Source: a virus. From it: a stretch of 64,000 nt of DNA. Below are positions 7,673 to 52,181 of this stretch, piece by piece. Location: the IMG/VR virus record IMGVR_UViG_3300031760_000017, one strand, 5' to 3'. Below the pieces are notes generated by a model. The model searched no databases and had not been told where the DNA came from. It worked only from the letters and a program-made list of their open reading frames with translations. The position numbers were made by a program, and so were the translations under genes. Position 1 is the first letter of the stretch, and every line of letters begins with the position of its first letter.

Positions 7673-7696
7673 GGTAAATGATTTTTCATTTACCTT
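7671..7696. terminator. bidirectional hairpin between convergent genes
   Basis: AAGGTAAATGA-tttt-TCATTTACCTT. It overlaps the stop codons of the plus-strand gene (7672) and the minus-strand integrase (7690). Confidence 0.55.
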
Positions 7697-8703
7697 ATAT
7701 ATTTTTGATGATCTTGTTTAACTTTTTCATTTGAAACATGTGCATAATGTAAAGTAGTTTCAAGCTAAGAATGTCCTAATACACTTTGAATAGATTCAAT
7801 TGGCATGCCTCTGTTTATCGCAGTTGTTGCCATAGTATATCTAAAACGATGTGGAATAATATCTTCAACACCGCTATTCTAAGTTAATTGATGCAATCTT
7901 TTTCTAACTCCTGAAGTACTTAATCTATTATAAGGGAATCTTAAAGACACAAAAAGAGCTTCATTATTATCTTTTCTTTCATTTATATAGTTTTTTATAC
8001 TAACTACAGTTTTTGCATCTATATAAACAGTTCTCCATTTTCCACCTTTTCCGCAAACAATAATTTCCCTCTTATTTAAATCAACATCTTTAATATTTAA
8101 ACCTACACATTCAGAAATTCTAATACCTGATGAAATTAGTAAATCTACAATAGCAATATCTCTATTTGTTTTACAAGCTCTTCTTATCTATTCTATATCT
8201 ATATCAGTGTACTATTGCCTTGGTTTTACATTAGACTTCTATCTTCTTATTCTTACTGAAGGATCTTTCTAAATATACTCTTCTTCATATAGCCATTTAA
8301 AAAAAGATCGTATAATACTTTTTCTTTGATTTAATGTTTCAGTACTTAATGGTTTACCAGTTTTTTTATTTTTAGATATATATTGAATATATAAACGAAG
8401 ATGATTAACAGTTATTTTTTCTAAAGGTAAACTTAAATAGTTTAACATATCCTATAAACACATTTTATATTGTTCTTTACTTTTTTCTGACATTCTACCC
8501 TATTGCTCTTTTGCCGCCATATAAATATAATAAGCTTCTGGTAATTGATAATTTTCATCTTTTAAATCTACAAAATTTGGTGTGATATTATAATTAAGAG
8601 AATAAGTATTTAATATATTTTTAATTTTATCTATATCCTATCTTTTAAAAAACGGCTATATTTTTAAACAAAATCCTTCAACAAAAGATAAGTTTGAAGA
8701 CAT
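7690..8703 (-). CDS. tyrosine recombinase/integrase (XerC/D-like), 337 aa with TAG=Gln
   Basis: Hand translation gives ...SSGIRISE..., HRFRYTMATT, LGHS-TAG-LETTLHYAHV (catalytic R, HxxR, H and Y). About 10 in-frame TAGs, with no TAA/TGA until 7692-7690. Confidence 0.8.
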
Positions 8704-8912: not shown

Positions 8913-10181
8913 TTACTCACCTAAGATTGTGCCATCGACATACTCAAGACGTTTTACAACAAAATCACGTATCTGCAAAATGTTGTTGTCCGTCTTTCCG
9001 GGGATCGTAATAAAAGCCCCGTCTGCTGTTGTCTCTGCATAATCCTCGGCATAAAGATATGGCGGAATCTGGCTTATGAACTTGTCGAACTCTCCGAGAA
9101 TATTTCCGGCAGAAAGTACGGTTTCTCTAAGTTCCTGATACCTTGCTATTACATCGCTCTGGAAAAGATTCCAAATACGATAATGCAGGTAGTTGTCCTC
9201 TTGAAACTGCGTATATCCGTTATAATTCTCTTGGAAGATTGTGTTATAAGGACGCCATGTTACTTCTTCCTGTCGCACAAGTCCGGTCATTCCCCACGTA
9301 GAATCCAAATCGTACAAACCTGTGTACCACTGTTCTGCATCATACGTAAAAAATGTCTGATTCTTTGCGATCAGGTCAATGGCACATATAGCCCTTACGA
9401 ATATATGCATATCAATGAGCGATTGCAGGTCAATCTTTGAATCTATCCCGGCTATAAACTGCGCATCTGTTGAATTACATATAAACGCCAGTACGGAAGT
9501 CCAACTATCGGCAATGACTGTTGGCATTTCATCGTGAAGTTCATCAGACCATTTTCCATTCATTGTCGGCTGTCTGAAAAACATCGTGTTATCATCAGCA
9601 AGCCCATCTGTCTGAATAATGCAGTTTGTTTCCTCGTCAGAATCCACACCGTACATACCGTCTTTCGGTAAATTCCATGTATAAAGACCATAGTATACAC
9701 CGTTGTGGTAGACCTTGACCGGGAATCCATCAATCGCAAGATTGCTCTTTCTCAGCGTAGCAGGTAGGGATGCAAAATTACTCCTTGACCTGACTGCCTG
9801 TGACCAAAGACGGGCATTAACAATATTTCTTGCATGGCTGTGGTCTATCCAGTTTGCTTTAAGGACAAACTTATTTCTAGGTTTATCCCAATCTCTGAAA
9901 AGACGTTTGCTCTTTGATTTTCTTGCGCTGTCTGTAAAAAGATTTATCGTGTAATTTTTCTTTGGATAGTAGGCAGATGAATCTCCTTGTACTTTAGCTG
10001 TAGCGTAATCCGTGAATGATTCCGTTGCGCTCTTGTATGTTATCTTAATGTTGCTCTTGCCTTCTGTCTTTGTCGCATACAGTTCACCCTCGATGGACAC
10101 AACTGGAATATCACCGTCATTGGGTTCATATCCGCCTACGTTTACAATATTTCCATGATAATCATAAATATAAGCCATCAT
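8913..10181 (-). CDS. CotH-family (kinase-like) protein, probable tail-fibre or receptor-binding accessory
   Basis: Intact 422-aa ORF in the standard code. LKANWIDHSHARNIVNARLW and the following segments resemble CotH. G+C-richer and TAG-free. Confidence 0.6.
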   Translation of the reverse strand: MMAYIYDYHGNIVNVGGYEPNDGDIPVVSIEGELYATKTEGKSNIKITYKSATESFTDYATAKVQGDSSAYYPKKNYTINLFTDSARKSKSKRLFRDWDKPRNKFVLKANWIDHSHARNIVNARLWSQAVRSRSNFASLPATLRKSNLAIDGFPVKVYHNGVYYGLYTWNLPKDGMYGVDSDEETNCIIQTDGLADDNTMFFRQPTMNGKWSDELHDEMPTVIADSWTSVLAFICNSTDAQFIAGIDSKIDLQSLIDMHIFVRAICAIDLIAKNQTFFTYDAEQWYTGLYDLDSTWGMTGLVRQEEVTWRPYNTIFQENYNGYTQFQEDNYLHYRIWNLFQSDVIARYQELRETVLSAGNILGEFDKFISQIPPYLYAEDYAETTADGAFITIPGKTDNNILQIRDFVVKRLEYVDGTILGE

Positions 10182-28276: not shown

Positions 28277-29851
28277 ATGATTTAGAAAATTGTAACTACT
28301 GTAATTCCAATTTTAGTACCTATTGTAATAATCGCTCTCTTATGCCTTGCAATTACCTTAATTGGTAAAGCTATGTATAAGAAATCTCCGCCAAATATGG
28401 CAATGGTTGTAACTGGACCTTTTGGAAATAAAACAATTATTGGTAAAGGTTGTTTTGTAATTCCTATTCTTGAAAGAGTAGACTTCCTTTCTCTTGAAAA
28501 TATGCAATCAGACTTTACATCTAAAGATGACATTCCTACAAAAGATGCCATCAATATTTTAGTAGATGCAGTTGCTAACTTTGCAATTTCAACTGATCCG
28601 AAGACTCTTCCAAAGGCTGCTGCAAAATTCTTAGGTAAGAAACCAAAGCAAATTGAGGAAATTGTAAGACCGGTTCTTGAAGGTAATATCCGAGAAATTA
28701 TTTCTCAAACAACTTTAAAAGAACTTATTCAAGGTGATAAAAAGAAACTTGCAGAAAGAATTATTGAAAATGTTACTCCCAATCTTCAAGATATGGGTCT
28801 TGAATTAACAACTTTTAATATTCAGAATTTCAAAGATAAAAATGGAGTAATTGATAACTTAGGTCTTCAAAACACAGTCCAAATTAGTAAAGATGCTGCT
28901 ATTTCTAAAGCAAAAGCTGAACAGGAAATTGCAGTTGCGGAAGCTAATGCGCGAAAAGCTGCTAATGAAGCTCAAATTGCTGCGGAAACTGAAATTGCAG
29001 AAAGAGAAAATAAGCTTACAATTAAAAGATCTGAATTAAAAAAGCAGGAAGATATTAAGAAAGCAGAAGCTGATGCTGCTTATGAAATTCAGCAACAGGA
29101 ACAGCAAAAAATAATCGAAATTGCAACTGCCGATGCAAAACTTGCAAGACAAGAAAAAGAAATTGATTTGCAAGAACGTGAAGTTAGTATTAGAGAGCGT
29201 AAACTTGAAGCTGAAGTTAAGAAAACGGCAGAAGCTAGAAAATACGCTGCTCAACAGGAATCTGATGCAAATCTTTATGCAACTCAAAAGAGTTCTGAAG
29301 CTGATTTATTTGAAAGACAAAAGAAAGCTGAAGCTGAACAGTATGAAGCAGAACGACGTGCGGAGGCTCAAAAAGCTAAAGCTGAGGCTGAAAAATTTGC
29401 AAAAATTCAGGAAGCAGAAGCTATTAAAGAAACTGGTACTGCGGAAGCTGAAGCTATTAAAGCTAAAGGTACCGCAGAAGCTGAGGCTATTAGAGCTAAG
29501 GCGACCGCTGAAGCTGAAGGTTTGTTAAAGAAAGCTGAAGCTATGGAAAGATATGGTGAAGCAGCTCGTGAACAGCAAAAACTTGACGCGTTAAAGATTT
29601 ACTTTGAACAGCTACCCGCAATTGCTGAAGCTATCGGTTCAGGCTATGCAAATGTTGAAAAGATGGTTATGTTCGGAGATGATTCTTCAAAATTAAGTGG
29701 TAATATCATTAATAATATTACTCAAGTTTCTGAGGGTCTTAATGAATCACTTGGTATTGATTTAAAATCTTTAATGTCTGCTTTTATCGGTGGAAAGATT
29801 GTTGATGCAAATCATACTGAAGTAACTGAAGTAACTAAAGAAGAAGAATAA
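28277..29851 (+). CDS. flotillin / SPFH (band-7) family membrane protein, 524 aa, TAG at codon 3
   Basis: AAGGAG RBS, then ATG 28277, ATT, TAG. The N-terminal TM helix IVTTVIPILVPIVIIALLCLAI is followed by an SPFH core and a long A/E/K-rich coiled coil. The track's ATG at 28373 lacks an RBS and would drop the TM helix. Confidence 0.75.
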
Positions 29852-40058: not shown

Positions 40059-40856
40059 ATGAAATATATATTAAAAAATGGTTAGTAGATAGAGTCCATT
40101 GATATTGGAAAGGCTAATATCAAAATAGGGCAAAGAAATAATCGACTTACTATTTGTGATAGAGCGCCTAATACAAAATCAAAAAAAGCACGTATAATTT
40201 GTTTATGTGATTGTGGACAATACACAGTTATAAATCATCAAGATTTTAAAAATGGACAAGTTAAAAGTTGTGGATGCTATGCAAAAGAAATACATGCTGA
40301 AATAGGAAGAAAAACTGCTATAGATTTCACTCAATCATAGTACAATAATAATCCATTTTATGAATATATTGAACCTACAGATGTTAGATTTAATTGGAGT
40401 AAACAAGTAGTATGGAAGGTTAAATGTAGAAAATGTAATAAAGAATATTTAGCAATTCCTAAAGAATTAATTTCTATAAATAATAATAAGCGTATGAATC
40501 CTTGTAATTGTTGGAAAACTTATAGTATTGGAGTTCAACGTATTATTGCAATATTAGAAAAAAATAATATTTCTTATGAATTAGAAAAAAAATTTGATAC
40601 ATGTATTTCACCAAAAGGAAATTGTTTACCTTTTGATTTCTATCTTCCTGATTATAAGATTTTAATAGAATATGATGGACAACAACATTTTAATATAGCA
40701 TTTGGTCAAAATGAAAATAAATTGATTCAACAAAAAAAATATGATAAAATAAAAAATGAATGGTGTAAAAATAATAATATTCATTTAATTAGGATACCTT
40801 ATTATCAAAAAGAAATTACAATTTAGAATTTAATAGGAGAAAAAATTAATGGGTAA
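40059..40856 (+). CDS. PD-(D/E)XK-type endonuclease (free-standing homing-endonuclease-like), 265 aa with TAG=Gln
   Basis: The N-terminal Cys-rich region is followed by FDFYLPDYKILIEYDGQQH...NIHLIRIPY. TAG TAG at codons 9-10. The frame continues through TAG 40824-40826 to TAA 40854-40856, overlapping the gyrB start. Confidence 0.55.
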
Positions 40857-42562
40857 ATTATATACAGAAGACTCGATAGAAAGCTTATCTCCTCTCGAAT
40901 TTACACGACTTAGACCTGGTGTATATTGTGGAGACACTAATTACTCTACTCAATTATTAATTGAAATATTTTCAAATGCAGTAGATGAATACCGTAATGG
41001 ATTTGGAAATAGAATTGATGTAACTATTCTCCCTGACATGATTTCGGTTAGAGATTATGGGCAAGGATTTATTCCAAATTCATATCGGGACGATGGAAAA
41101 ACAATTCTTGAAGCGGCATTTAGTGTTTTAAATACATCTGGAAAATATCGAGATGATGGAACCTATGAAGGAACTTCTTTAGGTTCTTTTGGTATCGGTT
41201 CAAAAATTACGACTTTCCTTTCTCATTGGTTAAGAGTTAAAACTATGAGAGATTCAGAGTGGGAAGAAATATATTTTAAAGAGGGCGTATTTCAATACCG
41301 AACAAGCGGTGCTGGAGGAGTTACTGGAACTCTTGTTGAATGGCAACCTTCAGAAGAATTTTTTACTCATCCAGAAGTAGAAATTAAAAAGGTCGTAGAT
41401 TTATTTAAAACTATTACATGTCTTTGCCCTGGTCTAACAATTAATCTATATGACCATGGAAAACATACTGTTTTTGTTTCTGATAATGGAATTAATGATT
41501 TAATTGATGAAGCTGTAAAAGACACAGAGCTTATTAATAATCGTTTTTCAATGAACTTTTCAGAAGGCAAAAATAAATTTGATATGGTTCTTACTTATGC
41601 AGGCAATTATTCTTTAACAATGGTCCCATATGTAAACACTGGACTTACAGAATCTGGACCTCATATTACTCAAATCAAAACCGTTATCACAAGAGAATTT
41701 AATAAATTCTTTAAAGAAAAAAAATGGTTAAAAGATAAAGATTCTAACTTAACTGGTGATGATATTCAAGAGGGTATGTATGTAATATTTAATCTTACTG
41801 CTCCCAATGTTGGTTATGACGCTCAAGTCAAGAGTAGAATCACAAAGATTGACATGAGTCCTTTTACTTCTGCATTAAGTACAAATTTAAACATTTGGCT
41901 TAATAATAATGAAAAAGAAATAAAAATTATTTTTGAAAAAGCAACAGCCGCCCGTAAGGCAAGAGATGCCGCAAAGAAAGCAAGAGATAAAGCAAGAGAG
42001 CAAAATAAAAAGAAACAGAAAGCTCTTAAATTCGATAGTAAACTTGCAGATTGTAATTCAAAAGATAGAAGTAAATGTGAAATTTATATTACTGAGGGAG
42101 ATAGTGCATCTGGTAATTTAAAGCTTGCTCGTGATAATGAAACACAGGCGGTTATGCCAGTTAGAGGTAAAATTTTAAATACTCAAAAAGCTACTTTTGC
42201 ACAGATTCAAAAAAATGCAGAAATTATGACAATGTGTGATGCCTTCTTTGGACCTGGAGACTGGTCTATTGACCCTAAGACTCTTAAAGTAACTTATAGT
42301 CAAGTAAGATATGGCAAAATAATCATTATGTCAGATGCTGATTGTGATGGAGCGCATATTAAAAATCTTTTTTACACCTTTATATGGAATTTCTGTCCTG
42401 ATCTAGTTCAAAAAGGGTATGTTTATGCTGGGGTTCCCCCGCTTTATAAAATTACTCTTCCTGCAAATAAAGGATATAAATATTTAAAAAATGATGAAGC
42501 ATTAAATGAATTTAAAAGCAAGAATAAAGATAAAAAATATCAGATCGGACGCATGAAAGGGT
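40849..42562 (+). CDS. gyrB: type IIA topoisomerase subunit B (GyrB/ParE-like), exon 1
   Basis: GHKL ATPase and Toprim motifs (EIYITEGDSASG, IIIMSDADCDGAHI). The conserved ...QIGRMKG is followed in the standard frame by unrelated residues, and joining at T42562 restores KGLGEM. Confidence 0.8.
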
Positions 42563-43595
42563 ACGAGTTAGTCTGGCCCTTAGCTACTTTTCCGCGGATC
42601 GGCGGGGTTGCCTAAAATAGGCAGCTAACGAGGTAGTCTTCTATTTAAAATTTTGGACATTTTAGGATAATCTGAAATGTGAAATTTTTATAATATATAG
42701 AAGATAATCTCGTGGGAAAAAATTACGATATTATCTCCAAAAAAATTAAAGGAGATAAAATAATGATAGGAATTTATAAAATTACAAATTTACTAAATGG
42801 TCATAGTTATATTGGATTATCTACTCATATTGAAGATAGATGGGAATATCATAAAAATCCATATAACTGGAATAGAGAAAAGAATAAATCTTTATACAAA
42901 GCAATTTTAAAATATGGTATCGAAAATTTTTCTTTTGAAATACTTGAATAGTGCTTACCAGAACAGTTAAGTGAAAAAGAAAAATACTATATTGAAAAAT
43001 ATAATACATATCATGCTGGTTATAATATGACTGCCGGCGGTGAAGATAATCAAGGTGAAAGTCATCCAAGACACAAATTAACAAAAGAAGATGTGATAGA
43101 TATTAGAACTAGATATGACAATCTTGAAAGAAAAAAAGATGTGTATTAGTTATATAAAGATAGAATTGGAGAAAGTGGTTTTTCTAAAATTTGGAAGGGC
43201 AACACTTGGACTTCTATAATGATGGAAGTTTACACTCCTTAGAATAAAAAATATCATTTACATGATACGGCAAATAAAGGCTCTCAAAATGGAAGAGCTA
43301 GATTAACTGAATAGGATGTAAGAGCTATTCGATTAAGAAGAAAGAACGGCGAAAAATTATCTGATGTATATGCAAATTATAAACATCTTTTAACCAAAGG
43401 GTCTTTTACGAATATTTGGTCGTATCAAAATTGGAAAAATATCGTAGTTTAAACCTGTATCGACTATCCCCTTTGTCGGGGAGTACATCTCTTATTGATA
43501 CAGAGATGGAAACAGTAGCGCCCTATGACTACAGTAAATGCGTTAGTACGAGGGCAAGAAATAGTCAGTGCCATTGGTAACAATGGATTAACACG
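42563..43595 (+). mobile_element. group I intron (1033 nt) carrying a GIY-YIG homing endonuclease gene
   Basis: The 5' exon ends in U (42562) and the intron ends in G (43595). Exon AAGGGU (42557-42562) pairs with intron GCCCUU (42576-42581), giving the U-G wobble at the splice site (P1). Both intron ends are G+C-rich and structured. Splicing restores frame and motif. Confidence 0.75.
42763..43452 (+). CDS. GIY-YIG homing endonuclease (intron-encoded), 229 aa with TAG=Gln
   Basis: AAAGGAG RBS. GIYKITNLLNGHSYIGLS...R...H...YGIENFSFEILE-TAG-C. Four in-frame TAGs. TAA at 43450-43452. Confidence 0.75.
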
Positions 43596-43786
43596 TAGGT
43601 GAAATGAGCATCGAAGAGACAGAAGAAACTTTAACTAATCCAAATAATAGAATCATTAAACAAATTACTGTTGAAGATGTTGCGGCGGCTGATAAACTTT
43701 TTAATGATTTAATGGGAAATACAGTTATTCCTAGAAAAAGGTATATTAAAGAGCATAGTGCGGAGGCTACTTACAATGCAGAATAA
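43596..43786 (+). CDS. gyrB: type IIA topoisomerase subunit B, exon 2
   Basis: (L)GEMSIEETEETL...ITVEDVAAADKLFNDLMGNTVIPRKRYIKEH matches the GyrB C-terminal tail. Spliced length is 1905 nt, or 634 aa. Confidence 0.75.
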
Positions 43787-48791: not shown

Positions 48792-49079
48792 ATGTTAAAG
48801 GACAATAGTAAACTTGTTTTCAATTTTGTTAAGTAGCACGATGGAGAAGATTTTACAGCACAGGATATTGCTGATGCAACTGGTCTTGGAGTAAGACAGG
48901 TCAATGGTATTATTACATCAGCTTTCCAGCGTTATAAGGATAAAGATAAGAATGAAATTCCGCTAATGCAACGTGTTGTAGCTGAAATTGTAGATCCTGA
49001 GACAGGACTTCATAAACCGGTTAAATTCATTCAGCTTACTGATGAAGGTAGAGAATTCGATCCAGATGCAGAGGATTGA
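48792..49079 (+). CDS. small winged-helix-like protein (95 aa), TAG at codon 15
   Basis: AAAGGAG RBS. ...FTAQDIADATGLGVRQVNGIITSAF... Ends at TGA 49077-49079. G+C-richer. Confidence 0.45.
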
Positions 49080-49146: not shown

Positions 49147-50091
49147 ATGGTTGTATTAACAATAATAGATATTATTATTTTTTGTGTTGCGATAGTATTA
49201 ATTCATAAAGCTGATTTAAAAAAAGTTAATATCGCTAAATAGCAATAGAAGAAACAACAGTTAATCAATTAGATTAAATAGTTATCTGATACATACAATG
49301 ATTATAATTTAAAAATACAAAACATCCTTCAAGAAACTCAAATTGTTAAAGCTAGAGCTGAAGAAACAACAGCTAATTATATTGCTAATCAAAAACAAAT
49401 AGCACTCGATTATATTAATAATCAATAGCAATTAGCAGAACAAAAAATTAAAGAAATAAATGCTAATACTTAGCAAGAAATTGCGGCAATTCATGAAGAT
49501 CTTCAAAATATTAGGTGTTCTGCCGCACAATAGAAAGAACAAATTCAAAACGAGCTTAATAAACTAAAAGCCTCTTTGAGTGCGGGCGTAGAAGCCCGCC
49601 TTCGCGAACAATAGAAAAAAGATAAAATTAATTTTTATAAACTTTCTATTAGTGATGCGGATTTAGCTGATGTTAAAATGCTAGAAAATTTAAAAGCATC
49701 TTTCCATAAACCTGTTGTTTTAAGTAAACTTATTTGGACTCAATATTTTCAAAAGCAAATGACTGAATTGTGTGATAGAGTACTTGGTAAAAAAACTGTT
49801 TGCGGCATTTATAAAATTACCAATTTATTAACAGAACAATGTTATATTGGTCAAAGTGTTAATATTAGTGATAGATGGAAACAACATTGTAAATGCGGCC
49901 TTGGTATAGAAGCATCAGCTACCAATATTTTATATAATTCAATGCAAAAAGATAAAGTTTGGAATTTTACTTTTGAATTATTATAGGAGTGCCCGCGTAA
50001 TTTACTAAATGAAAAGGAAGCTTTTTGGATTGATACTTATAGTAGTAATATATATGGATTAAATACTATGAAAGGAATTAATAAAAAATGA
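49147..50091 (+). CDS. DUF4041-like coiled-coil protein with C-terminal GIY-YIG/T5orf172-type nuclease domain, 314 aa with TAG=Gln
   Basis: N-terminal TM helix and coiled coil with many TAGs. C-terminal CGIYKITNLLTEQCYIGQSVNISDRWKQH...FELL-TAG-ECPRNLLNEKEAFWI. In frame with track ORF 49678. TGA at 50089-50091. Confidence 0.6.
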
Positions 50092-50942
50092 AATTTTAGA
50101 ATACAGATGTCTGGGGATTTTAGCATGCAATCAGGGGTATGAGAAATCCTAAAAATAGCTGGAATAAAAGTGATAGTCTTTTTGAAATTGCTTATATCGA
50201 ACAAATGGAGGCTGATTGGGAAGTCGCTTCAAGTTATGTCGATGCAAATGAAAAATATGATTTTTAGAGTGAATATGATAAATATTATGAAGCACAAGAA
50301 AAATATGCGGATTGGCTTCTTAAAAATGGTGTTTTAAAAGATCAAAATGAATGTTTTAGTTATGCTTTTATTGGACCAAATGATATGAAACTGGCTCAAA
50401 CTCTTATTAAAGCTGGTCCTGAACACCGAAAATTTCTACGCCAAATCTTTGTATCTGTTGATATTACTGCACCACTTTATTGGTGGAAATAGATGGATCA
50501 ATATAAAATTGGGACAGTCACAGATAGCACATCAACTATGCATAAACTAACGAGTAAACCTATTACTCTTGAAAGTTTTGAAATTGATGATTTTAATCCA
50601 GAAATTGTATATTACGAAATTCTTGATGCTCAAAATGATATTGGTATGCTTGCGGATTTTATAATTGAACAACTTGAATTTCTTCGTCAAAAATATCTTG
50701 AAACAAAAGACAAAAGATATTGGAAAGAATTAGTACGATGGTTGCCTGAAAGCTGGTTACAAAAAAGAACATGGACTGCAAATTATGAAGTTCTTTATTC
50801 TATAGTTTTACAAAGAGGGCATCATAAATTAGAAACAGAATGGGATAAAGGTTTTATACATTGGTGCGCCTCATTGCCATATGCAAAGGATTTGATTTTT
50901 TATGGAGAAGAACGAGAAAAAATATATAATTTATATGCATAA
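50088..50942 (+). CDS. ThyX-like (flavin-dependent thymidylate synthase fold) protein with divergent active-site motif, 284 aa with TAG=Gln
   Basis: ATG overlaps the upstream stop (ATGA). ITAPLYWWK-TAG-MDQYKIGTVTDSTSTMHKL aligns by eye with ThyX ...[25 protein letters not shown], but RHR and SxR are not conserved. A later WTANYEVLYSIVLQRGHH resembles the ThyX C-terminal helix. Confidence 0.4.
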
Positions 50943-51528
50943 AAATAAAATTAATAATAAAATGTATATAGGACAAACTTGCCAAAATCCACCATCAAAA
51001 AGATGGAAACCTTGTAATTATAAAGGATCTTCAAGATTTTATAATGCTATTTTAAAATATGGTTGGATTAATTTTGAACATATTATTTTAAAAAAATGTT
51101 CTTCACTATAGGAAGCAAATTAGTAGGAAAGAAATTTTATTAGTCAATATCAAACTACAAATCCAGAATTTGGATATAATATTATGCCGGGTGGCTCTAA
51201 TAAAGAAATTCCTTTATAGGTTCGAGAAAAAATGTCTAAAAATCATAGAGATGTTAAGGGGAAAAATAATTATTTTTACGGAAAACATTTTAAAGGTAAA
51301 GAACATCCATTTTATGGACAACATCATTCGGATGAAACTAAACAAAAATTAAAAAAATCTTTATTAAATAAAAATGGAAAAGCAGTAAAATGCATTGAAG
51401 AAAATAAAAATTTTCCTTCCGCAAGAGAAGCTGCAAGATATTATAATATGAAAACTTCTAGTCACATTTCTGCATGTTGCAATGGCAAAAGACAAACTGC
51501 TAATAAATTTCATTGGGAATATATTTAA
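50902..51528 (+). CDS. GIY-YIG homing endonuclease (Seg/I-TevI-like, free-standing), 208 aa with TAG=Gln
   Basis: YIIYMHKNKINNKMYIGQT...YNAILKYGWINFEHIIL, then NUMOD3-like repeats (GKHFKGKEHPFYGQHHSDETKQK) and a C-terminal helix-turn-helix-like NFPSAREAARYYN. Its start overlaps the ThyX-like 3' end. Confidence 0.7.
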
Positions 51529-51800: not shown

Positions 51801-52181
51801 ATGACTAAAAAAGAAAGATTTATTGAATTTGTTAATGAACTCATGGAAATGGTAGATATAAACGAATGGGATGAGGATGAAAAAAAAGATTGGAAAGATG
51901 CTTTTGATTTTTTTGAAGAACTTAAAAATAATAAAGTAAAAACCGCAAAAGAAATGACTGAAAACGGTACCAAACTTCTTTCTTGGATGCAAGAGAATAA
52001 AGAAAAAATGTCAAATGTCTTTACATCTAAGGAAGCTGCGGAAGGACTTTTCACAAGCGGCCGCTCTATTGCAGGAACCATGAGAAAGTTAGTAAATGAT
52101 GGTTATGTAAAGAAAACTGGTAAAGACCCTGTTCAGTATTCTTTAACTGAAGCTGGAGAAAATTATCAGTTTGACAATTAA
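51801..52181 (+). CDS. winged-helix (MarR-like) DNA-binding protein
   Basis: C-terminal ...FTSKEAAEGLFTSGRSIAGTMRKLVNDGYVKKTG. Confidence 0.45.
   Translation: MTKKERFIEFVNELMEMVDINEWDEDEKKDWKDAFDFFEELKNNKVKTAKEMTENGTKLLSWMQENKEKMSNVFTSKEAAEGLFTSGRSIAGTMRKLVNDGYVKKTGKDPVQYSLTEAGENYQFDN

Follow-up and report, generated by a model that had tools for sequence, protein, structure and literature searches.

Current understanding assigns thymidylate synthesis to two unrelated enzymes, ThyA and ThyX; each is a drug target, and each serves to predict how sensitive gut bacteria are to antifolates. In Firmicutes, the genes are usually ordered thyA-folA. Dihydrofolate reductase (DHFR) recycles the dihydrofolate that arises from ThyA-type thymidylate synthesis (PMC1971073). 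In ThyX, the flavin-dependent thymidylate synthase (FDTS), R90 and Y91, which bind or activate deoxyuridine monophosphate (dUMP), are residues on which activity critically depends (PMC6514825, PMC11940539, PMC7226160), and R90 and R174 of the T. maritima enzyme are its two essential dUMP-activating arginines (PMC7226160). A ThyX paralog, PolB of Streptomyces cacaoi (PDB 4p5a), is the uridine monophosphate (UMP)/dUMP C5-methylase of polyoxin biosynthesis and is reported to have the flavin- and folate-dependent mechanism of ThyX (PMC7226160, PMC5954106). Here we describe gB, a viral gene whose product is predicted to have the ThyX fold and, unlike PolB, belongs to a family without the ThyX signature motif. 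It was found in IMG/VR record IMGVR_UViG_3300031760_000017, of which the whole stretch of 64,000 nucleotides (nt) is called the window. The region studied (positions 49147-51528) holds, when TAG is read as a sense codon, three tightly packed open reading frames (ORFs), gA, gB and gC, at these exact limits. The three overlapping genes that an earlier note had placed here were thereby reproduced, with their limits and both the ATGA and the 41-nt overlaps.

Fold and active site of gB

We assign gB to the ThyX fold on the strength of a predicted structure. With 149 diverse family sequences as input, AlphaFold returned a model with a predicted local distance difference test (pLDDT) score of 96.4 (54 with 24 close homologues), and a structure search of BFVD retrieved "uncharacterized" relatives and then phage ThyX. 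Pfam Thy1 was passed by 13 of the 149 members (best 9.1e-7, 29.3 bits; cut-off 24.8), and an N-terminal R-x4-S-W motif was common to the family and M. tuberculosis ThyX in the MAFFT alignment. Model, fold search and Thy1-passing relatives agree, in line with the ThyX resemblance proposed in the earlier note. gB itself gave no match to the Pfam Thy1 and NCBIfam ThyX models at E <= 1, even after deletion of residues 31-94, a lineage-specific insertion, and PDB sequence searches with gB, with profiles A1 and A2 and with the Thy1-positive member P0205 returned no ThyX match. The fold is what the family shares with the described ThyX/FDTS proteins (PF02511, COG1351; TM0449, H. pylori, M. tuberculosis and PBCV-1 A674R).

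gB is one member of a huge, unnamed family, spread over Bacillota phages and clostridial chromosomes, and not an oddity of one phage. Searches returned more than 8000 matches, forming 3222 clusters at 50% identity (E <= 0.001), and members are annotated "hypothetical" everywhere; the PHROG family of gB, 6721, has no annotated function. No description was found in the literature on a non-canonical ThyX-like family, on the function of DUF3310 (a domain encountered beside the family, see below) or on a third thymidylate synthase.

We mapped the catalytic residues of ThyX onto gB with hhalign, with a local hidden Markov model and with MAFFT using three ThyX sequences, and counted conservation over the same 149 members. 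The reference sequences of T. maritima and M. tuberculosis ThyX were checked against the PDB, where both proved 100% identical. The segment of gB aligned to the ThyX signature RHRxxSxxxxSxRY reads QYKIGTVTDSTSTMH and has no Arg or Tyr at residues 141-153 in three alignment registers; the form found across the family is (T/Q)YKxxTxxxSTSTMH. We located the string that the earlier note had quoted from this site, K-TAG-MDQYKIGTVTDSTSTMH, at gB residues 134-152 (window 50487-50543), and its claim that the signature is replaced held in every register, RHR...SxRY being gone in each. All three methods placed H53 of T. maritima ThyX on H113 of gB, E58 on R118, R74 on K134, Q75 on codon 135 (TAG), R78-H79-R80 on Q138-Y139-K140, S83 on T143, R147 on R217, N163 on N232, R165 on E234 (E in most members) and R174 on R243, while H178 corresponds to H246 (H245/K247 in the MAFFT register). 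The ThyX residues R78, H79, R90 and Y91 are absent from gB; the equivalent of R90 is T150 or M151, and an R or K at position 150 is confined to some distant clades (PMBT24, phiCTP1, ProddE). The family keeps equivalents of H53 (retained in 128 of the 149), which we take to be the folate-stacking histidine, of Q75, of the S83/S88-type hydroxyls and of N163, R174 and H178. Of the two dUMP-activating arginines, gB keeps the equivalent of R174 and lacks that of R90, and about half of the positions presumed to contact flavin in T. maritima ThyX are changed in the family. The suspected loss of catalytic residues was borne out for RHR and SxRY.

The replacement residues are themselves nearly invariant: Y139 is found in 149 of 149 members, K140 in 137, T143 in 136, S147 and S149 in 148 each, and M151 and H152 in 146 each. 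Elsewhere in the protein, D99 is present in all 149, R118 and K115 in 148 each and R19 in 147, and the kept residues R243 and H246 are present in 144/146 and 145/146, respectively. The exchanged invariant set therefore reads T/Q-Y-K ... S-T-S-T-M-H plus R19, K115, R118, D99 and D137. Among members down to ∼40% identity, ∼35 positions are at least 90% conserved and many of these are polar, including R19, D29, D99, K115, R118, D125, D137, Y139, K140, S147, S149, H152, R200, R227, R243 and H246. Taken together, the alignments describe a conserved, different active site, predicted to sit on a ThyX scaffold, and since the replacements are nearly invariant over 149 members, gB is unlikely to be a decayed paralog.

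Two other readings bear on this point. gB could be a non-catalytic ThyX-fold binder of nucleotide or folate, acting as a regulator, as a chaperone of the kinase or DHFR or as a nucleotide sponge; key ThyX catalytic residues are lost, and activity is not known for any member. However, the ∼35 conserved and often polar positions form a typical active-site pattern, and bacterial chromosomes retain the gene in single copy, sharing an operon with an essential enzyme. We consider a binder of this kind very unlikely, and the non-catalytic paralog raised in the earlier note is disfavored by the near-invariance of Y139, S149, M151, H152 and R243. Alternatively, gB could be an ordinary ThyX, with equivalents of RHR and SxRY that lie elsewhere and were missed in alignment, as the shared fold, the members passing Pfam Thy1 and a genomic niche like that of phage ThyX genes might suggest. 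Against this, three independent methods put the Q/T-Y-K segment on RHR, residues 141-153 of gB hold no Arg or Tyr, and the sole H-R-K string of gB (113-115) is placed by alignment on the H53-E58 region, which precedes strand 3, matching the secondary structure of the model. E58 is exchanged for R118 and R165 for E234 in most members, the Thy1 and ThyX models do not match gB with the insertion removed or not, and the linkage to DHFR described below is a hallmark of ThyA-type, not ThyX-type, stoichiometry. These observations make an ordinary ThyX quite unlikely.

Gene neighborhoods and the possible reaction of gB

We examined 75 loci from bacterial genomes and 80 IMG/VR loci for genes accompanying the family. 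In 12 of the 75 genome loci, the family gene lies directly beside a DHFR gene; in 11 of these it is immediately upstream on the same strand, at distances from 11 nt apart to overlapping, and in the remaining one (L162) they are divergent, 186 nt apart. The DHFR assignment was verified three ways, with E. coli FolA, with NCBIfam models and with the precomputed Pfam domain. The paired members come from Lacrimispora and other Clostridia, fall into two subclades that are only ∼50% identical, and carry the same motifs as the phage members; that of Lacrimispora xylanisolvens, WP_104436430.1, is annotated "hypothetical protein". A reverse search starting from DHFR showed that the pair is kept in three further chromosomal contexts (SbcCD, Cbi cobalamin genes and trigger-factor-like), the DHFR of [Clostridium] saccharolyticum WM1 being among these. 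In their position directly upstream of DHFR, the bacterial members resemble the thyA-folA pairs of Firmicutes and td-frd of T4. They differ from ThyX in this pairing, which ThyX-type chemistry does not require, and the family differs from ThyA in its unrelated fold and in that the phage copy of the window has no DHFR nearby.

Four arrangements recurred among the viral loci: the SPbeta-like replication module, as in the window; dUTPase followed by an HPr-like gene, then the family gene and last a guanylate-kinase-type gene; a set made up of NrdD, NrdG, the family gene and dUTPase; and the family gene followed by DUF3310. Fusions with DUF3310 were considered as a clue to function and were uninformative, DUF3310 itself being uncharacterized. 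A guanylate-kinase-type or DNMK/deoxynucleoside monophosphate (dNMP) kinase gene stands directly 3′ of the family gene in nine viral loci; five of these pairs overlap by 4 nt (ATGA), one abuts and one is spaced by 4 nt. The family domain also occurs fused to a T4-gp1-type DNMK kinase (P0145, 1.7e-17) and to a guanylate kinase (P0190, 1e-7). The resemblance to T4 gp42 (deoxycytidylate hydroxymethylase) plus gp1 (DNMK) lies in this coupling or fusion of a dNMP enzyme with a DNMK or guanylate-type kinase, while gp42 has the ThyA fold and nothing seen here points to a modified base. Enterocloster phage PMBT24 carries dUTPase, NrdDG, a dNMP kinase and the family gene. By tblastn, no ThyA or ThyX was found in PMBT24 (the genome but 309 nt), in phiCTP1 (all but 1.4 kb) or in 77 kb of the window's contig, and none was found within the 4-10 kb flanks of ∼170 viral and bacterial loci (L184-L186 left out).

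We also note that in the dUTPase/kinase-type operons (viral loci L073, L075, L081, L082, L092, L093 and L084; genome loci L128 and L149) the gene directly 5′ of the family member encodes a small PTS-HPr-like protein (75-140 amino acids [aa]; Pfam PTS-HPr 1.3e-6), and that a nucleoside 2-deoxyribosyltransferase-like gene often lies 3′ of the kinase in such operons.

The phage neighbors (kinases, dUTPase and NrdD/G) and the clostridial pairing with DHFR suggest a role in pyrimidine dNMP synthesis, with thymidylate or something close to it as the product. On this basis, we see about an even chance that gB is an active enzyme that makes pyrimidine deoxynucleotides, descended from ThyX and thymidylate-synthase-like, with a remodeled site. 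In the pathway predicted as most likely, dUTPase would supply dUMP, gB would carry out a folate-dependent C5 one-carbon transfer onto it, and phosphorylation of the product would fall to the dNMP kinase, coupled or fused. The reaction may draw on the reducing power of tetrahydrofolate and release dihydrofolate as ThyA does, rather than use flavin as ThyX does; dihydrofolate release is proposed because the bacterial gene occupies the thyA position directly upstream of DHFR, and a ThyA-like stoichiometry becomes possible since the family has lost the flavin and RHR residues and is joined by DHFR.

A different product would fit part of the same evidence. The family could make a non-canonical pyrimidine dNMP, for example a 5-hydroxymethylated or otherwise substituted dUMP or deoxycytidine monophosphate (dCMP), for hypermodified phage DNA, with the altered motif reflecting another substrate or an arrested reaction and the coupled kinase playing the role that T4 gp1 has for hydroxymethyl-dCMP. 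A catalytic motif that is replaced yet conserved, the T4-gp1-type DNMK and guanylate-type kinases that are fused to the family or stand in operons with it, and the frequency of the family in phages rich in anti-restriction and homing-endonuclease genes all speak for such a product. The same motifs, however, occur in the chromosomal DHFR-paired genes of Lacrimispora and other Clostridia, where hypermodified DNA is not expected, and no glycosyl-, amino- or other transferases recurred beside the family gene in 155 clustered viral and genome loci. Moreover, hydroxymethylases of the T4 gp42 type regenerate tetrahydrofolate and have no need of DHFR. We regard a modified dNMP as rather unlikely; the different nucleotide modification suggested in the earlier note is possible and, in view of the operon-like clostridial DHFR pairs, less likely than a thymidylate-synthase-like role.

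Several points weigh against the proposed thymidylate-synthase-like enzyme. With R90, Y91 and RHR absent, canonical ThyX chemistry is not to be assumed, and the register of residues 144-152 shifts by up to two positions between the alignment methods. The hhalign comparisons of the family profile with T. maritima ThyX or with a 4-sequence ThyX profile were collinear and weak (E 0.07-0.08), so that homology to ThyX rests on the fold search and the 13 Thy1-passing members. The kinase fusions fit a modified-dNMP enzyme equally. No DHFR gene was found near the phage copies, and neither dUTPase nor dNMP kinase was found in the 77 kb of the window's contig that were inspected. The bacterial search for ThyA and ThyX covered the locus flanks, and a thyA gene elsewhere would weaken the argument from position. 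Finally, for all members the enzymatic role is a prediction from sequence, model and gene context.

A bolder form of the proposed thymidylate-synthase-like role is that the family represents a third mechanistic kind of thymidylate synthase, in which the ThyX fold has lost its flavin-dependent chemistry, methylene-tetrahydrofolate serves, as in ThyA, as both carbon and hydride donor, and dihydrofolate is released; this enzyme would be the sole de novo supply of deoxythymidine monophosphate (dTMP) in Lacrimispora-type Clostridia and many of their phages. We consider this fairly unlikely as a whole. If true, a dihydrofolate-releasing ThyX-fold synthase would explain the fixed pairing with DHFR.

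Homing endonuclease genes around gB

gB had been described as lying between two GIY-YIG genes, and the domain was found on both sides. In gC, GIY-YIG spans residues 7-87 (E 4.7e-8), accompanied by NUMOD3 (5.9e-11) and an I-HmuI NUMOD-like match (1e-3) in Pfam, and the protein falls into PHROG family 314 (E 5e-33). This order of an N-terminal GIY-YIG domain and NUMOD3 repeats is that of the free-standing homing-endonuclease type, as in the I-TevI/Seg-type genes of T-even phages, which gC also resembles in its sporadic presence among close relatives and in its insertion with co-conversion of the end of the target gene.

We compared four related phage contigs with the window. The gene is carried by the window and L004 and is absent from L002, L003 and L014, and blastn homology with L002 ends at window position 50828 and restarts at 51522 (coordinates of all features are collected in Table 1). 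The cassette so delimited includes the last ∼38 codons of gB and the entire gC. Both loci with gC have the gB tail "...EEREKIYNLYA", and other tails occur in P0037/L002 and P0051/L014, both of which were seen without gC; a gC-related segment lies 5′ of gB in L014, and gC-like proteins are encoded in 17 of the 80 viral loci. By these sequence comparisons, gC is a mobile homing-endonuclease cassette that also supplies the C terminus of gB.

Table 1. Positions of gB, its motifs and its neighbors in the window
Feature	Position (nt)	Strand	Description
gA	49147..50091	+	314 aa, 9 in-frame TAG; ORF with TAG as sense
gB	50088..50942	+	284 aa, 4 in-frame TAG (codons 4, 12, 60, 135); unannotated family with predicted ThyX fold, PHROG 6721
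gC	50902..51528	+	208 aa, 4 in-frame TAG; overlaps gB by 41 nt (50902-50942)
ATGA overlap, gA stop/gB start	50088..50091	+	"empty" form of variable insertion slot
gB in-frame TAGs	50097-50099, 50121-50123, 50265-50267, 50490-50492	+	
gB codon 135 (TAG)	50490..50492	+	aligned with ThyX Q75; homologues E (124) or Q (24)
Q138-Y-K-I-G-T-V-T-D-S-T-S-T-M-H152	50499..50543	+	in place of ThyX signature RHRxxSxxxxSxRY
R243-G-H-H246	50814..50825	+	kept equivalents of ThyX R174 and H178
Mobile cassette	50829..51521	.	693 nt in place of 78 nt of gC-less relative
95-aa neighbor	48792..49079	+	conserved; weak helix-turn-helix-like matches
126-aa MarR/TrmB-like neighbor	51801..52181	+	conserved, 3′ of gB/gC

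gA is built differently. Its N terminus is hydrophobic, a Q/K-rich part probably forms a coiled coil, and the GIY-YIG nuclease domain is C-terminal (residues 219-301, E 4.9e-8, Pfam PF01541); PHROG places it in the "homing endonuclease" families 7168/314/5123. Its description as a DUF4041/GIY-YIG gene stands for the nuclease domain and not for DUF4041: neither DUF4041 nor T5orf172 was found in gA at E <= 1, the sole other Pfam match being a sub-threshold RNase_E_G_Thio (E 0.089), and the likeness to DUF4041/T5orf172-type proteins is one of architecture, with a coiled-coil N terminus and a C-terminal nuclease. In contrast to the GIY-YIG nucleases of T-even phages, gA has the reverse domain order. 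It is also fixed in this phage lineage and not sporadic, since every SPbeta-like relative examined keeps an orthologue of 305-318 aa with 77-85% nt identity 5′ of its gB counterpart. gA-like proteins were found in 42 of the 80 viral loci. We considered gA as a specific partner of gB; this is unproven, as the co-occurrence comes largely from shared synteny in one phage lineage.

The gA-gB junction is a second variable insertion slot, empty in the window and L004 and occupied by a 241-aa ORF in L002, a 71-aa ORF in L013 and a 210-aa NUMOD3 protein in L014. The gB gene is a homing hot spot. The extreme sequence conservation of the gene may be what makes it a homing site; the gC cassette would have entered its 3′ end and brought a replacement C terminus, the gA-gB junction would have served as the second slot, and gA may be a GIY-YIG protein that became fixed beside gB. 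The association with homing endonucleases put forward in the earlier note, by analogy with thymidylate synthase genes of T-even phages, is thus upheld by the mobile gC cassette and by in-frame HNH insertions in other family members, but not by gA, which is fixed. Those insertions occur in P0191, P0211, P0233 and P0239, from other metagenomes, where an HNH_3/NUMOD4 (plus helix-turn-helix) endonuclease lies in frame within the ThyX-like domain, in the loop that separates its STSTMH motif from its long helix. Each gene remains a single continuous ORF, and no intein or intron signature was seen in these ORFs.

Two further genes of this phage are split around GIY-YIG genes. The gyrB gene is divided into a 588-aa GyrB N-terminal/Toprim part and a 60-aa C-terminal part with a 229-aa GIY-YIG gene between them (window 40849-42615, 42763-43452 and 43604-43786), and GyrB of the relatives is intact at 635-641 aa. 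A DnaE-type Pol III alpha gene is likewise interrupted by a 251-aa GIY-YIG/helix-turn-helix gene, which leaves parts of 750 and 617 aa (window 63358-64000, running on past the window; L009 12312-17411).

Genetic code, further genes of the window and significance

TAG is read as sense throughout this phage, which is code-15-like. Reading TAG through raises the summed length of ORFs of at least 100 aa in the window from 11,764 aa with standard stops to 19,772 aa, and the ORFs so recovered include a 2883-aa tape-measure ORF with 71 TAG codons and a 1563-aa ORF with 26. A tRNA with anticodon CTA is encoded on the same contig at L008 3536-3609, ∼5 kb upstream of the window start, as part of a 24-tRNA array that ends inside the window (window tRNAs at 396-1395). 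The public gene call for the same 84-kb metagenomic contig contains the identical 284-aa gB (P0001, 100%).

The opposing view, that the TAGs are real stops and the region holds decayed gene fragments with no functional gB, has in its favor that translation with table 11 gives only fragments, with short ORFs throughout 48.7-51.6 kb. It is contradicted by the long ORFs obtained window-wide on read-through, the 2883- and 1563-aa proteins among them, by the tRNA(CUA) of the contig, by the pLDDT of 96 for the full-length gB model and by the alignment of all four gB TAG sites with E or Q in the homologues, and it is extremely unlikely. Judged by that alignment, TAG is probably decoded as Gln or Glu; comparison of the suppressor tRNA with the other tRNAs of the phage was uninformative, the tRNA being not close to the phage tRNA-Gln.

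TAG is unevenly used: the GyrA, LigA, YorF, DnaB and RNA ligase genes are free of it, and gA, gB and gC carry 9, 4 and 4, respectively. This suggests that decoding depends on timing. In a coding-density test, apparent TAG recoding was limited to 15 of the 80 related viral loci, the others using the standard code; as both kinds share the same replication module, recoding is patchy in this phage group.

The genes on either side of the studied region are conserved as well. In SPbeta-like relatives, the 95-aa neighbor (cluster c6, seen in 32 viral loci) invariably separates the ligase gene from gA. On the other side, a homologue of the 126-aa neighbor matched MarR_2 (1.6e-4) and TrmB (1.8e-4), and the gene is followed by YorF, AAA_24, YorH and DnaB in that order.

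Other parts of the window hold further gene sets. A tyrosine integrase gene with 10 in-frame TAGs adjoins a gene for a CotH-domain protein (window 7690-8703 and 8913-10181, both on the minus strand), which suggests a temperate or formerly temperate SPbeta-like phage. A 524-aa Band_7/flotillin-like protein is encoded beside an 829-aa vault-type protein with major-vault-protein shoulder and Vault_3 domains (window 28277-29851 and 30774-33263). At window 33779-36667 there is an RNA-repair-like set of RNA ligase (412 aa), KTI12/AAA_33 kinase (166 aa) and metallophosphatase (173 aa), after which come a holin and a 761-aa multi-domain endolysin.

In gut Clostridia and the phages of these bacteria, the family to which gB belongs thus numbers thousands of proteins, with a predicted ThyX fold, a different conserved active site and, beside DHFR, the position of thyA. 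Placed within the ThyX superfamily, it has a real chance of being mechanistically new. If it makes a modified nucleotide instead of dTMP, it would provide a new DNA-modification route in phages. If the gB family does make dTMP, it would be an example of a rebuilt flavoenzyme active site, metabolic reconstructions of these bacteria would be missing their thymidylate synthase, and predictions of susceptibility to trimethoprim, pyrimethamine and ThyX inhibitors would need revision.

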